A stretch of 14,929 nucleotides of DNA from Chthonomonadales bacterium. GTDB taxonomy: Bacteria; Armatimonadota; Chthonomonadetes; Chthonomonadales; Chthonomonadaceae. The notes under the pieces were generated by a model. The model worked only from the letters and a program-made list of their open reading frames with translations, was not told where the DNA came from and searched no databases. Made by a program: the position numbers and the translations under genes. The stretch covers positions 1-14,929 of the forward strand of contig JBBQPO010000152.1 in the NCBI GenBank assembly GCA_038217285.1, read 5' to 3'. How positions within the stretch are numbered: the first letter of the stretch is position 1; each line of letters starts with the position of its first letter. Shown piece after piece: positions 3 through 8,187 of the stretch.

Positions 3-758
3 GACTGCGAGCTTATGCCCGGGAACGCAAAGGCGCAGGGCCTATTGCGCGAGCAGTACGCGCCGGTCGGGGCGGCAGCGCAGGCATCGCTCACCGCGGC
101 CATCGCCGTCATGGAGCAGGCGGCGGCGCGGGGACTGGATGTGGCGGAGCGCCTGATCCATCTGCGGCGGCGTCTCGACGATGTCACCCGCTACCGTGCC
201 GCCTATGCGCACTACTGCTGGGAGGTGCAGGGGCTGGAGGGGATCCGTCTCGCGCCGTTCCACCTCATGGCGACGGAAGGCAAGACCTACTTCGACCGCG
301 ACCACCTCTGGCACATGACGACGCTGGCCCGCCTCGCGGAACAGAGCGATCTGCTGATGGCGACGGACTATCTGCGTGTCGAAACCGGCGACGAAGAGTC
401 CGTCGCGGCCGGAACCCGCTGGTGGGAGGAGATGACGGCTGCCGGCGGCGAGGGCATGGTCGTCAAGCCATTCGCGTTCGTGGTGCGCGGCCCGAAGGGG
501 CTGGTACAACCTGCCGTCAAGGTGCGGGGCCGCGAGTATCTGCGCATCATCTATGGGCCGGAGTACACGGCTCCTGAGAATATCGAACGGCTCCGAAAGC
601 GCGGTCTGGGCGCGAAACGCAGTCTCGCGCTGCGCGAGTTCGCGCTGGGCGTGGAGGGATTGGAGCGGTTCGTGCGGAAAGAACCCCTGCGCCGTGTCCA
701 CGAATGCGCGTTCGCTGTTCTCGCGCTCGAAAGCGAACCCATCGACCCGCGCCTGTAA
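3..758 (+). CDS. pnkp: Polynucleotide kinase-phosphatase (bacterial Pnkp, RNA repair), C-terminal ligase domain; 5'-truncated by window edge
   Basis: Frame is open from nt 3 (DCELMPGNAKAQ). Contains LAPFHLMATEG, EGMVVKP, KVRGREYLRIIYGPEY, REFALGVEGLERF and the C-terminal ALESEPIDPRL typical of Pnkp ligase domains. Confidence 0.93.
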   Translation, partial: DCELMPGNAKAQGLLREQYAPVGAAAQASLTAAIAVMEQAAARGLDVAERLIHLRRRLDDVTRYRAAYAHYCWEVQGLEGIRLAPFHLMATEGKTYFDRDHLWHMTTLARLAEQSDLLMATDYLRVETGDEESVAAGTRWWEEMTAAGGEGMVVKPFAFVVRGPKGLVQPAVKVRGREYLRIIYGPEYTAPENIERLRKRGLGAKRSLALREFALGVEGLERFVRKEPLRRVHECAFAVLALESEPIDPRL

Positions 759-5890: not shown

Positions 5891-6193
5891 ATGGCAATTC
5901 TGCGTAAATCCGCGCTTGCGCTCGCGGCAGTGTTCTGCCTCGGCGTTGCGGTCCCCGTCTTCGCTCAGGGCGGAGCAGACAAATCAAGTACCGATATCAA
6001 GGCTGCTCAAGGCACGTTGACGGAGATGCAGCAGCTCGGAGCGGACATCAAGGCTCGTCAGGCGCGCGCAATGACCGCAACCGGCACGACCCCGGTTGCG
6101 GCTCCCGTGGTCCGGAGAATGGCCACGACGGATGCCGGCACGAAGGCTCCCGCCAAAAAGAAGAAGGGTGCTAAAAAGAAAAAGACCCCGTAG
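5891..6193 (+). CDS. Small secreted hypothetical protein with Lys-rich C-terminal tail
   Basis: SD AAAGGAG; Sec signal MAILRKSALALAAVFCLGVAVPVFA|Q; ends KAPAKKKKGAKKKKTP; followed by terminator hairpins. Confidence 0.8.
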   Translation: MAILRKSALALAAVFCLGVAVPVFAQGGADKSSTDIKAAQGTLTEMQQLGADIKARQARAMTATGTTPVAAPVVRRMATTDAGTKAPAKKKKGAKKKKTP

Positions 6194-6212: not shown

Positions 6213-6247
6213 GAAAGGCAGGCCGTTATCGGCCTGCCTTTCATTTC
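6213..6247. terminator. Bidirectional intrinsic terminator between convergent genes
   Basis: Perfect 13-bp stem GAAAGGCAGGCCG-ttat-CGGCCTGCCTTTC (6213-6242), T-rich at the 3' end on both strands. Confidence 0.8.
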
Positions 6248-6285: not shown

Positions 6286-6483
6286 TTAACCCTTGCCTTT
6301 GGGCGGGGTACCCTTGTCTCCATGCGTCTCCTGGCCGTCGGCGACCAGCATCTGCGGGATCGACTTCAGGGAGAGCGTCTTGTGCGCGGAGGTCTGGACC
6401 GGCGTCAGGCGAACCGAAGTCAGCATGGCTACGGCGACCATGCCGAGCGTCAAGAGAGAGATATGTTTCAATGTCATTTTCAT
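6286..6483 (-). CDS. 65-aa secreted propeptide, candidate signalling-peptide precursor
   Basis: ATG lies 1 nt after the TAA of the upstream gene; SD AAGGTGA 9 nt upstream. Basic N-region MKMTLKH, hydrophobic ISLLTLGMVAVAML, polar C-terminus ...MLVADGQETHGDKGTPPKGKG. Terminator follows. Confidence 0.75.
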   Translation of the reverse strand: MKMTLKHISLLTLGMVAVAMLTSVRLTPVQTSAHKTLSLKSIPQMLVADGQETHGDKGTPPKGKG

Positions 6484-6484
6484 G

Positions 6485-8038
6485 TTACTCGTTCACCTTT
6501 CCAAGCTCTCCATCCAGCCAGTTCCACCAGGCCACCAGGTCGGCGTCACGAATCTGGAATAGAGTTTGCAGAAACTTGTCGGCGGGGCATGTCGGCATGT
6601 CGGCCCGCAGCACCGTGTCCATCAGTTGTTGCGCTTCCACGTAGTAGCGATCCTTGATGTAGGCCAGAAGCAGATTGCTGGCGCGCATGGGAGCAGGCTT
6701 CTCCATGGACAGGCGGGCATAGAAGGTGGCCCGCTCGATATTGCGCTCTTTATTGCGACCGGCGTCGAACCAGGTCAGGTAGATGTCGGACGCGTTGGTC
6801 GCGGCGATATAACGATGGTCTCCGGCACGCGGGTTCTCGACGATCGTCAGATAGACTTTCAGAGCGTCCCGCAGGTTCCCGGTGCGACTGAGCATCACGC
6901 CGACTTCATTGTATGCGGCGAAGAACTGCGGATCGGTCTCGTAAGCAGTGCGATAGAGCCGCAGGGCCTCTTCTATTTTACCCGAACGCCGCACGGAAAC
7001 GGCCTGCAGGTAGAGCGTCTGCGCCTCCGCAATCTCCGACTGCGGGCTGCTGTCCAGCGTATAGGTGTCCATCACGCGCATCGCCTGCCGCATTTCGGGC
7101 GAGGGCGGGGCGGTATTGGCGCCGGTACTGACCTCGTTGATGACGGCCTCTTCCAGATTGTCGTCCGGGTTCGCAGGATTCGCGGCCCGCTCGGCCCAGG
7201 GCGAGTTCATAAGCCGCCGGAACAGGTCGTTCTGGCGTTCAGCGCTCCAGTTGGGCGAGGGCGTCGACTTCTGGCGCACGCGGCTGCTCCTCTGCTGCGC
7301 CAACAGGCGCACGAAGGGATTGTCGGCCCCACACTCACGCCGCAGGATCTCGGTGAGAGCGGCGCGGGCACGGCAGATGGTCTGGCGCTCATTGGCGCTT
7401 TCCGGGGAGACCTTGTTGCCTGACTCCCGTTCACGCTCACGGGCCATATCCCGCTGCAGCGCCGAGAGATAGTTCTTCGGAATCGACTGCAGTCCCTGCG
7501 CCAGCGCAACGCGGAAGCAGTGGCGCTCATCGCGATCGATGAGAGCCTCTTCGGGCTGATCGCCTGTCTCCTCCGTGGCGAACGTGTCGCCCAGGGTCAG
7601 CGTACTGCCCCCATCGCCACCGGCCAGCGGCTGGTCCATGGAGACGGTCGGCACATCGCGCCGTACCACACGCTCGGTATCGCTTATAACGGAACGGATG
7701 CAGCGGGCCAGATAGGCCGTCGCGTCCGGAAAAATCGTATCCAGTGCGTCCGAGAAGCTGCCGCTCTGCAGCAGAGCATCGCTCTCGAATTTGCGTACAG
7801 CGACCCGCGCCATTTTGCGACAGGCCTCTTCCAGTGCGACGTAGCCATCGTTCGCACTGAGTCGCGGCGGCAGCACACGCCCATCTTCCAGGGTACGCGG
7901 CTGCGATAGATTCGAAACGGCTCGTGCGCCAAAGCGACGAAGGATCGTCTCGGCGGCCTGCACAGGATCGCAGACAACAGGACGGACGCCTTCCGGGGCA
8001 GTGTATCGGGCGAGTCGGGCTGTGTTTTGCGTTAACAC
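6485..8038 (-). CDS. Sigma70-like N-terminal domain fused to a C-terminal TPR domain (517 aa)
   Basis: GTG8038 with SD GGAGGAGG 6 nt upstream. Sigma-like segments AVRKF...AYLARCIRSVISD (region 2), VSMDQPLAGGDGGSTLTLGD (region 3.2-like), LQSIPKNY and CRARAALTEIL (region 4-like). TPRs AQTLYLQAVSVRRSGKIEEALRLYRTAYETDPQF and FAAYNEVGVMLSRTGNLRDALKVY. The CDS and TPR calls are firm; the sigma call is by eye. Confidence 0.75.
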   Translation of the reverse strand: MLTQNTARLARYTAPEGVRPVVCDPVQAAETILRRFGARAVSNLSQPRTLEDGRVLPPRLSANDGYVALEEACRKMARVAVRKFESDALLQSGSFSDALDTIFPDATAYLARCIRSVISDTERVVRRDVPTVSMDQPLAGGDGGSTLTLGDTFATEETGDQPEEALIDRDERHCFRVALAQGLQSIPKNYLSALQRDMARERERESGNKVSPESANERQTICRARAALTEILRRECGADNPFVRLLAQQRSSRVRQKSTPSPNWSAERQNDLFRRLMNSPWAERAANPANPDDNLEEAVINEVSTGANTAPPSPEMRQAMRVMDTYTLDSSPQSEIAEAQTLYLQAVSVRRSGKIEEALRLYRTAYETDPQFFAAYNEVGVMLSRTGNLRDALKVYLTIVENPRAGDHRYIAATNASDIYLTWFDAGRNKERNIERATFYARLSMEKPAPMRASNLLLAYIKDRYYVEAQQLMDTVLRADMPTCPADKFLQTLFQIRDADLVAWWNWLDGELGKVNE

Positions 8039-8187
8039 TCTCAGCCTCCTCCAAAAGGGATTCGGAACGCACAATCTTCGGATACGTTCCGACTACGAGA
8101 ACCCGCCGATTTCGTGACACCTGCCGCAGAAATATTTTTTCTGAGGTAGATTTCGGCATATCTCCCGTTATTCCTTCTTATACTTAA

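Follow-up and report, generated by a model that had tools for sequence, protein, structure and literature searches.

The window, that is, the whole stretch of 14,929 nucleotides that was analysed, contains a self-contained regulatory unit, in which a single promoter precedes two genes that are coupled in translation. The first gene encodes a protein with a predicted divergent ECF sigma N-terminus and a C-terminal TPR domain; the second gene encodes a small peptide, which is predicted to be exported. A sigma factor with a fused TPR sensor is an architecture known from ECF42, whereas the obligate peptide partner is new. The gene pair and the peptide motif recur in 57 of 57 orthologous loci, and the promoter recurs in 57 of 58; therefore, they are not chance features. 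Gating of the sigma factor by the peptide through the TPR domain is plausible. The unit as a whole is tentatively read as an autoregulated ECF-type sigma factor with a fused TPR domain, together with a peptide whose motif gates the sigma factor via this domain. It may represent a novel kind of transcriptional switch.

Sequence inspection confirmed the gene pair and the other described parts at 6286-8038 on the minus strand. The sigma-TPR gene (6485-8038, minus strand) encodes 517 aa from a GTG start at 8038. The Shine-Dalgarno sequence GGAGGAGG lies 5' of this GTG (8045-8052, minus strand), and GGAGG-type sequences were seen in most sigma-TPR orthologues in the upstream listing. One base separates the stop codon of the large gene (TAA, 6487-6485) from the ATG of the small gene at 6483 (6286-6483, minus strand), which encodes the 65-aa peptide. 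The original prediction of a small ORF with a signal sequence, placed 1 nt past the stop of the large gene, was borne out. Homologues do not lack it: a downstream ORF of 48-106 aa, with a start offset of -14 to +37 nt, was found in all 57 loci with downstream DNA, and a 4-nt stop-codon overlap in 22 of them. A terminator had also been predicted after the pair, and this claim stood in part. A 13-bp hairpin (6213-6242) between the convergent genes is real, with a folding z of -4.6 and none of 200 shuffles folding equally well. However, no U run directly follows it on the minus strand, and the terminator consensus scan was near expectation (2 terminator-like sites, 1.8 expected). A second hairpin, with a U run, was read off the sequence ~10-40 nt beyond the first.

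The sigma-TPR gene occurs as a single copy. Of 68 genomes from one order, which the source names identify as Chthonomonadales, 60 gave a strong match, and a search of 267 further genomes from the phylum did not recover the gene. The host belongs to the Armatimonadota and has 60% G+C, in agreement with the high-GC and probably non-Bacillota host that was originally predicted. The divergent homologue P0127 has 498 aa and 40% identity; its genomic context gave no match among the genome contigs or metagenome contigs searched. The flanking genes are not conserved, and a neighbour is shared in at most 9 of 57 loci. The small peptide gene is the sole conserved neighbour of the sigma-TPR gene. No anti-sigma-like gene was found in the window, and the flanks are variable. 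The Pfam matches of the window's genes include no DGPF/YCII or COE-type family.

Pfam and NCBIfam searches of the 517-aa protein matched no sigma domain, but only the TPRs. A scan of the genome with PF04542 gave 47 matches, none of them in this contig. The predicted sigma70-like N-terminus nevertheless gained support from remote homology, as profile, hhalign, and fold comparisons suggest that it is a divergent ECF sigma factor with sigma2 and sigma4. When 24 ECF sigmas from the genome itself were compared with it by hhalign, the match had a probability of 76% and an E-value of 2.3e-5 and spanned region 2.4, the linker, and sigma4. The N-terminal profile finds ORFs of ~200 aa elsewhere in the phylum (E 1e-5 to 2.6e-9), and all five that were checked contain Pfam sigma domains: four have both region 2 and region 4, and the fifth (L096), which lies at a contig end, has region 4 alone. 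Among PDB sequences, the same profile reached no better than E 0.19 for SigL and ~0.9 for RpoS. In a BLASTP comparison with 13 long ORFs of this genome that contain sigma domains, no match fell below E 0.09.

Structural comparison gave a similar picture. The top 50 Foldseek matches of the N-terminus are almost all sigma chains, but with E-values of 0.04-0.5. The best VIA match is the sigma4 of SigL (Z 6.5, rmsd 3.7, 72 of 80 residues), at a Z within the range common for helical models; the sigma2 matches are the RpoE sigma2 (Z 5.3) and sigmaE region 2 (Z 4.6). The sigma2-like domain covers aa ~20-127 (7658-7981, minus strand), as suggested by the AF2 N-terminal model (pLDDT 82), VIA, and the hhalign match at region 2.4. 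The sigma4-like domain covers aa ~162-236 (7331-7555, minus strand) and contains the invariant helix E-R-Q-x-x-C-R-A-R; it was assigned by VIA, hhalign, and the invariant columns. The putative recognition-helix residues (E217, R218, Q219, C222, R223, A224, and R225) are invariant in 24 aligned homologues, as are the region 2.4 residues. The invariant recognition helix parallels the nearly invariant -35 element across the loci. In the AF2 model, the sigma4 helix-turn-helix appears remodelled. Since it looks remodelled and the Pfam sigma models miss the domain, binding of DNA and RNAP is not guaranteed.

The C-terminal TPRs that had been predicted were recovered as a domain of aa 337-515 (6494-7030, minus strand), with Pfam TPR matches at aa 339-402 and a helical repeat in the AF2 model over the whole domain. 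The full-length profile matched only TPR proteins among PDB sequences, including the PTS1 receptor, and Foldseek matched the TPR domain to OGT TPRs and consensus TPR proteins. No match to the Rap, NprR, PlcR, PrgX, Rgg, or AimR families was found in Pfam/NCBIfam at E <= 1, or in the Foldseek top 50. Between sigma4 and the TPR domain lies a linker (aa 240-335; 7034-7321, minus strand), which is conserved in the alignment, of low confidence in the AF2 model, and includes A-P-P-S-P-E-M-R-Q-A-M-R-V-M-D.

The ECF-type promoter that had been predicted 5' of the pair was found to be conserved. Its -35 element, TGTCAC (8114-8119, minus strand), is followed after 16 nt by the -10 element CGTA (8094-8097, minus strand); 55 loci share this spacer length, and 2 have 17 nt instead. 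GTCAC-N16(17)-CGT lies 46-111 nt 5' of the start codon in 57 of 58 orthologous loci, and the consensus TGTCAC(G/A)-N15-CGT(A/C/T) is ECF41-like. An A/T-rich stretch just upstream of the -35 (8123-8140, minus strand) is possibly UP-element-like; by eye, A-runs are likewise placed in many loci. Two GGAAC/GAAC-N16-CGTx matches are also present (8090-8066 and 8214-8190), but the TGTCAC site is the conserved one. The promoter of the operon has the top PWM score in its own genome (31.6). One PWM match near another ECF sigma gene (C11:23829) sits inside a ThuA gene and was dropped. The same motif was found 5' of FecR/DUF6600 orthologues in 26 of 28 loci, with 0.026 expected per search window, and 5' of a second family, C57, in all 26 loci evaluated. 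Both families are exported proteins, and these regulon members are unlinked to the sigma-TPR locus. Within 700 nt of the 47 canonical sigma genes of this genome, no copy of the promoter was found. The sigma-TPR protein itself most likely reads TGTCAC(G/A)-N15-CGT. Another sigma factor reading the promoter is a possible alternative.

Both genes are covered by RNA-library contigs from relatives of ~85-95% similarity, including one that bridges their junction (6286-7268), which is compatible with the proposed unit. These contigs come from a small share of a metatranscriptome and carry no start site, strand, or level, and the stretches they leave uncovered are uninformative. Because they extend to 8141, upstream of the predicted -35, the predicted start site is unconfirmed.

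The 65-aa ORF has a K-rich n-region and an 18-residue uncharged stretch, which is followed by ADGQETHGDKGTPPKGKG. Its signal-peptide-like N-terminus covers aa 1-33 (6385-6483, minus strand). All 57 peptides have a positive n-region and a hydrophobic 12-mer (KD >= 1.88). Export and cleavage of the peptide are predicted from such sequence features alone. The motif D-G-Q-E-T-H-G (aa 49-55; 6319-6339, minus strand) is the only conserved part of the peptides from the 57 loci, and it is nearly invariant across the order. G2, E4, and G7 are invariant in all 57, yet they are encoded by 4, 2, and 4 synonymous codons, respectively, which indicates selection on the motif at the protein level. The motif forms the extreme C-terminus in 20 of the 57 peptides, a tail of 3-19 residues lies beyond it in the other 37, and it is duplicated in 5. 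Several of the tails are His/Gly-rich, such as GKGGGHSHG and GSGHWHA. The peptide gene is single-copy in this genome. In the Atlas look-up, the peptide scored 0.77 at best, which falls short of the level that counts.

Other roles of the small protein were considered and rejected. Only 5-23 residues precede the most hydrophobic 12-mer, which is too few for the domain of a classical anti-sigma factor. A RiPP precursor was rejected because no modifying enzyme is conserved nearby. A lipobox, as in a lipoprotein, is not evident in the window's peptide, the one sequence inspected.

A hint of contact between the peptide and the sigma-TPR protein comes from covariation. Three clades have replaced the motif His, and each of them also differs at columns 327 and 330 of the large protein. 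Random clade triples, 300 in all, showed 0.06 such columns on average, and 0.7% of the triples reached two. The signal consists of two columns from one of four tests, among kin that are not independent; for motif positions 3 and 5, no column was changed in all clades. One check suggested at the outset was whether the small ORF always follows the large gene and co-varies with the TPR groove. The ORF does follow in all 57 loci with downstream DNA, but the co-varying columns lie outside the groove, in the linker just before the TPR domain. In uncontrolled complex predictions that paired the TPR part (aa 325-517) with the peptide (aa 30-65), using alignments of 24 and 46 rows, respectively, the scores of 0.24 and 0.26 stayed below the mark of 0.32. 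Two genes for Opp/Dpp-type binding proteins are present in the genome, which is compatible with re-import. The peptide may contact the TPR domain.

The following mechanism might connect these features. The product of the first gene would be a cytoplasmic, highly divergent ECF-type sigma factor (sigma2-linker-sigma4, ~240 aa), followed by the conserved linker and the C-terminal TPR domain. It would recognise TGTCAC(G/A)-N15-CGT and turn on its own operon in a positive feedback, as well as a small regulon of exported proteins, namely the FecR/DUF6600 proteins and a small envelope protein family. The product of the second gene may be a pre-peptide, which is made together with the sigma factor and exported by the Sec pathway. 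The TPR domain would sense D-G-Q-E-T-H-G as its cue and, depending on whether it is occupied, would put the sigma factor into the inactive or the active state. The motif could reach the TPR domain after processing and re-import, or when the precursor stays unexported. The Armatimonadota are a diderm phylum; therefore, a released peptide would need to cross or stay within the outer membrane, which is a point against the mechanism. The more specific form of this mechanism is possible but doubtful: a DGQETHG fragment of the cell's own exported peptide, re-imported or retained, would dock on the TPR domain and directly release or lock sigma2/sigma4. If true, it would be an RRNPP-like or secretion-monitor logic in a diderm phylum, with RNA-polymerase specificity as the direct output. 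The near-invariance of the motif across the order, which is not a trait of known pheromone systems, counts against gating. To our knowledge, peptide signalling has not been described in this phylum.

The same autoregulated sigma-TPR protein could also work with a different signal. It is possible that the peptide is only the first output, acting outside the cytoplasm, and that the TPR domain senses something else. Such a peptide might bind metal via Asp, Glu, and His, or the co-regulated periplasmic FecR/DUF6600 proteins might recognise it as a ligand. The regulon identified here consists of exported proteins, several of the tails are rich in His and Gly, and an invariant motif would be expected of a fixed extracytoplasmic partner. 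In ECF41, the COE neighbours are the sole targets and have no signalling role (PMC3426412). However, the peptide gene is always downstream of the sigma-TPR gene and translationally coupled to it (57 of 57 loci), whereas the other regulon members are unlinked. Conservation of just seven residues and the covariation hint also argue against a pure output. In a variant of the gating explanation, which needs no re-import, the TPR domain would bind the C-terminal motif of the unexported precursor. When the Sec or envelope capacity drops, the precursor would accumulate in the cytoplasm, the sigma factor would be switched, and envelope proteins would be induced. This variant accounts for a motif and receptor that do not diversify and for the single-copy core status, and it agrees with a regulon of exported proteins. 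TPR clamps for C-terminal peptides are well known, such as Hop with EEVD and Pex5 with SKL, and the PTS1 receptor is among the PDB profile matches. The motif ends 20 of the 57 peptides, as a clamp would favour, but the tails after it in the other 37 do not fit. Such monitoring is entirely inferential and has no known experimental precedent for a sigma factor, and it is considered unlikely.

The nature of the large protein and the type of signalling were weighed in the same way. It is quite unlikely that the large protein is no working sigma factor, but a degenerate sigma-like scaffold or TPR adaptor, with another ECF sigma factor reading the promoter. The silence of Pfam/NCBIfam on sigma domains, the weak Foldseek E-values, a VIA Z that is common for helical models, and the 47 other sigma genes in the genome would all fit this idea. 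It is opposed by the invariant residues of region 2.4 and of the sigma4 recognition helix in the 24 aligned homologues, by the absence of the promoter from all 47 canonical sigma genes, and by the joint occurrence of promoter and gene in 57 of 58 loci. True RRNPP-type quorum sensing, with cell-cell density sensing and pheromone specificity, is very improbable. The unit does fit the operational definition of RRNPP_detector, a TPR protein beside a Sec propeptide of 10-100 aa, and the scan with that tool covered Firmicutes and viruses only (PMC10075063). The duplicated motif in five peptides is also in line with it. However, no homology to RRNPP receptors was detected by Pfam, NCBIfam, or the Foldseek top 50, and the receptor of 517 aa exceeds the 250-500 window of RRNPP_detector. 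The gene is present in one copy per genome and is core to the order, and the output domain is different (sigma-like). Since the motif is nearly invariant, there are no pherotypes.

The TPR extension of this protein comes with an obligate, genetically linked candidate ligand, the 7-residue motif. Fused C-terminal extensions are common among ECF sigma factors, and we know of no identified ligand for the TPR extension of ECF42. Synthetic peptides would thereby allow a direct test of what the TPR domain senses. If the sigma factor is gated by the peptide, this would be the first example of a peptide that acts as a cue on a sigma factor itself, and the Armatimonadota would have their first described peptide-signalling loop. 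If not, the unit is still a new order-specific ECF-like group missed by the standard models, with its promoter and a conserved envelope regulon.

The comparison with known systems places the unit outside the RRNPP family: homology was not detected, the peptides do not diverge into pherotypes, and the output differs. RRNPP systems have a patchy distribution, often occur in several copies, and diversify their pherotypes, whereas here a near-invariant peptide accompanies a core gene present once per genome. The unit shares with the RRNPP(A) systems (Rap-Phr, NprR-NprX, PlcR-PapR, and AimR-AimP) a cytoplasmic TPR protein beside a small Sec-type propeptide gene, and a conserved short motif at or near the propeptide C-terminus, which is occasionally duplicated in tandem. 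Several pheromones per propeptide are described for RRNPPA systems (PMC11343458). However, the output here is a putative sigma domain rather than an HTH or phosphatase, and the host is an armatimonadotal bacterium rather than Bacillota or their phages. The RRNPP-like cassette of the original prediction thus holds for the layout of TPR protein and propeptide, but finds no support in descent, copy number, or peptide diversity. A further likeness is with PatS/PatX-HetR of the cyanobacteria, in which a small protein with a hydrophobic N-terminus and a short conserved C-terminal motif (RGSGR-type) acts through this motif on the cytoplasmic transcription regulator HetR in a diderm bacterium. The peptide here has the same layout, and the PatX cluster ranked second in the Atlas look-up (0.76, below the level that counts). 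However, the motif differs, HetR is not a sigma factor and has no TPR, and there is no sequence relation.

The closest parallels are found among the ECF sigma factors with C-terminal extensions. The conserved neighbour in ECF42 is a DGPF/YCII-type gene, which is a target and not a regulator; this counts against a gating peptide. The original prediction knew of no described system with its combination of features, but ECF42 is a precedent for a sigma factor with TPRs: two reports describe these ECF sigmas as carrying a C-terminal TPR extension of ~200 residues, and predict regulation via protein or peptide contact with it (PMC7826278, PMC8999054). Members such as Sven_0747 (Streptomyces venezuelae) and ECF-10 (Pseudomonas putida) share with the unit an ECF core, a TPR extension, and no adjacent anti-sigma gene. 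For ECF41, the published account gives the promoter signature TGTCACA-n16(+/-1)-CGTC and describes the conserved neighbour as a target, which again counts against a gating peptide (PMC3426412). The promoter here is near-identical; its spacer falls 1 bp short of the ECF41 consensus, which is the lower limit of the range given there. ECF41 also combines a sigma factor carrying a C-terminal regulatory extension with a co-transcribed conserved neighbour; its extension is SnoaL-like and not TPR, and its neighbour is a COE enzyme and not a small exported peptide. Compared with ECF42, the core here is too divergent for the Pfam sigma models, ~95 extra conserved linker residues lie between sigma4 and the TPR domain, and the family is confined to one order. 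The promoter here is of the TGTCAC type, and the conserved partner is a small, putatively exported peptide instead of a DGPF/YCII protein.

Both ORFs of the original prediction are present on the minus strand. The sigma-TPR gene runs from a GTG start at 8038, preceded by GGAGGAGG, to a TAA stop at 6487-6485 and encodes 517 aa; the 65-aa small peptide ORF begins one base after this stop (ATG at 6483) and ends at 6286. The small peptide comprises, in order, a Lys-containing n-region, an uncharged 18-residue stretch, a variable spacer, ADGQETHG, and a Lys/Gly-rich tail. The operon is separated from a convergent gene by a region with a 13-bp hairpin (6213-6242; z-score -4.6). None of 200 shuffles folds equally well, and no U run directly follows the hairpin on the minus strand. 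A convergent 100-aa ORF (5891-6193, plus strand) has a Lys-rich tail, AKKKKGAKKKKTP; a similar ORF, with a signal-like N-terminus, is found downstream in only three loci of the same genus (L001-L003). The neighbouring genes are unrelated: a PNKP ligase, a CCG/4Fe-4S protein, YkuD, YbjQ, an SBD_N/NBD_C kinase, PdxA, DUF362, and an aldolase. The first, an RNA repair ligase domain of PNKP type (3-758, plus strand; PF16542, E 2e-113), is truncated at the window edge, with only its C-terminal part present.

Homologues of the sigma-TPR protein carry the source name 'Chthonomonadaceae bacterium' (Armatimonadota, Chthonomonadales). Matches were found in 62 of the 68 genomes of the order, and in 44 of the 45 with completeness of 90% or more and contamination of 5% or less; 60 of the 68 have one strong full-length match each (E <= 1e-132). 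An N-terminal profile matched strongly in the window's own genome and 33 sampled relatives within the order, and in none of the other 267 phylum genomes sampled. A search of 1.84 billion cluster representatives identified one full-length cluster, fragments, generic TPR proteins, and a sole divergent full-length relative (P0127; 498 aa, 40% identity). P0127 retains FWNWLEEK at its C-terminus as well as the sigma4 helix. The genome counts, profile, and cluster search together show that the sigma-TPR gene is a core gene confined to one order and present in single copy.

Pfam and NCBIfam recognized no sigma domain in the sigma-TPR protein, only TPRs (aa 339-402). A PF04542 (Sigma70_r2) scan of the whole genome (6.2 Mb) gave 47 matches, none of them in the window's contig. 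By hhalign, an alignment of 33 N-terminal regions of the family matched 24 ECF sigmas encoded in this genome with a probability of 76% (E 2.3e-5); the match takes in region 2.4, the linker, and sigma4. The N-terminal profile also gave weak matches (E 1e-5 to 2.6e-9) to ORFs of ~200 aa across 301 phylum genomes. All five such ORFs fetched contain Pfam sigma domains: Sigma70_r2 and r4_2 in four, and region 4 only in the fifth, L096, at the end of its contig. The linker motif (V/I/Y)SLD.P(L/I) of the four complete ECF ORFs is shared with the sigma-TPR family, where it reads TVSMDQPL. When aa 20-265 were modelled with AF2 (pLDDT 82), the Foldseek top 50 consisted almost exclusively of sigma chains (E 0.04-0.5). 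The best VIA match of the N-terminal model was the SigL sigma4 domain (Z 6.5, rmsd 3.7, 72/80 residues), with sigma2 matches at Z 4.6-5.3, values that, taken alone, are in a range common for helical models. On the profile, Pfam, linker-motif, and fold evidence taken together, the N-terminus is accepted as a putative, strongly divergent ECF sigma core, in agreement with the sigma70-like domain proposed originally.

A profile of 24 homologues matched only TPR proteins among PDB sequences. The AF2 model of the sigma-TPR protein (pLDDT 73) consists of a helical N-terminal part, low-confidence segments (aa 250-264 and 283-324), and a TPR superhelix (aa 337-515). In Foldseek, the matches to the TPR part were canonical peptide-binding TPRs, including OGT and consensus TPR proteins; RRNPP receptors were absent from the top 50. 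Elsewhere in the genome, a 738-aa ORF (contig C7, 36785-38998) has an N-terminal Sigma70_r2 match and weak TPR-like similarity to the TPR of the sigma-TPR protein (BLASTP E 0.095), and may represent another, unrelated fusion of a sigma domain to repeats.

For the small peptide, 59 of the 60 strong loci were examined (G037 was left out); two end at a contig edge, leaving 57 usable loci. A small ORF of 48-106 aa lies downstream of the sigma-TPR gene in all 57, starting -14 to +37 nt relative to the end of the stop codon and overlapping the stop by 4 nt in 22. The expectation that homologues keep this ORF was borne out. In all 57 peptides the n-region is positively charged and a hydrophobic 12-mer is present (mean KD at least 1.88), features consistent with the predicted Sec-type signal sequence. 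The sole conserved part is the motif [D/N/E/S]-G-[Q/V/S/T/I/N]-E-[T/S]-[H/N/T/G]-G. Its G2, E4, and G7 are invariant despite the use of 4, 2, and 4 synonymous codons, respectively, which indicates that selection acts on the protein, not the DNA. The motif forms the extreme C-terminus in 20 peptides, is followed by a tail of 3-19 residues in 37, and is duplicated in five. No second small peptide of this kind was found in the window's own genome. The flanking genes are variable, with a neighbour shared in at most 9 of the 57 loci; the conserved unit is the promoter, the sigma-TPR gene, and the small peptide gene only.

In aligned upstream regions of the 58 loci with enough upstream DNA, (T)GTCAC(G/A)-N15-CGT was found in 57, 46-111 nt 5' of the start codon, in line with the ECF-type promoter predicted ahead of the gene pair; the -10 element deviates in one locus. 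In the window, TGTCAC lies at 8119-8114 and CGTA at 8097-8094 (minus strand). Two GGAAC/GAAC-type matches, one closer to the gene than this site and one more distant, are, judged by eye, not conserved beyond the genus. The motif nearly matches the published ECF41 signature TGTCACA-n16(+/-1)-CGTC (PMC3426412). A GCGYTCCGAA-like box in the predicted 5' UTR (8061-8070, minus strand; ~25-35 nt before the start codon) recurs at the corresponding position in many loci of family f1, and could be a regulatory RNA element or a protein site. An A/T-rich, partly palindromic stretch, CAGAAAAAATATTTCTG (8123-8140, minus strand), adjoins the -35 element on its upstream side and may be UP-element-like, since A-runs occur at the equivalent position in many orthologous loci.

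A genome-wide PWM scan ranked the window's own promoter site first (31.6). The next-ranked intergenic sites sit upstream of exported-protein genes, including a pair of FecR + DUF6600 paralogues and a pair of small paralogous proteins with no Pfam match. The FecR/DUF6600 proteins (C11, 6901-9540; C9, 13008-15377) are secreted, have TGTCAC-type promoters upstream, and lack a cytoplasmic anti-sigma part; among their orthologues, the motif is upstream in 26 of 28 loci, versus 0.026 expected per region scanned. In addition to a predicted signal peptide, the small proteins (C57, 1939-2592; C119, 16526-16858) have another hydrophobic segment, GLGAAALGLLLTQKNKL, and a repetitive Asn/Asp/Arg/Tyr-rich tail. 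Thirty orthologous loci of this C57 family were fetched, four without a local match, and all 26 evaluated carry the motif upstream. The motif does not occur within 700 nt of any of the 47 canonical sigma genes in the genome. Across 24 aligned homologues the recognition-helix residues of sigma4 do not vary, and the -35 element varies hardly at all between loci. We infer that the sigma-TPR protein reads the TGTCAC-type promoter and thereby regulates both its own gene and a small envelope regulon. TGTCACG-N15-CGTA (PWM 19.5) also occurs 112 nt upstream of a CdaA-type diadenylate cyclase gene (C37, 9890-10705).

Communication between the small peptide and the TPR domain is a candidate mechanism. 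It is favoured by the obligatory translational coupling of the two genes, the epitope-like 7-residue motif with its C-terminal placement, and the canonical peptide-binding type of the TPR; however, the motif hardly varies, and the Armatimonadota are a diderm phylum, which counts against it. A covariation hint also points to communication: columns 327 and 330 of the sigma-TPR protein changed in 3/3 clades in which the motif His is replaced, and two such columns were reached by just 0.7% of 300 random clade triples. The signal comes from one of four tests and from few clades. Two Opp/Dpp-type binding-protein genes in the genome, and RNA-library contigs of relatives that cover both genes (one spanning the junction), are simply compatible with it. 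The tandem duplication of the motif is a further favourable point, likened to the multiple pheromone copies described for RRNPPA propeptides (PMC11343458). On the other hand, in ECF41 the conserved neighbour acts as a target and not as a regulator (PMC3426412).

The sigma + TPR layout is common to the sigma-TPR protein and ECF42, for which regulation via contact with another protein is predicted (PMC7826278, PMC8999054). The operational RRNPP definition of receptor plus propeptide describes the unit except for length, since RRNPP_detector, applied to Firmicutes and viruses only, uses receptors of 250-500 residues versus 517 aa here (PMC10075063). The original interpretation is partly supported: the proposed RRNPP-like cassette stands in its receptor/propeptide layout, but its output domain, copy number, and peptide diversity differ from those of RRNPP systems, and no homology to RRNPP receptors was seen in Pfam, NCBIfam, or the Foldseek top 50. 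In a literature search of main texts, the motif string occurred in no paper, and nothing relevant was returned for ECF, TPR, peptide signalling, and Armatimonadota combined. The unit is rated as a fusion of an ECF sigma to a C-terminal extension, which is a known layout, together with a new, obligate peptide partner.
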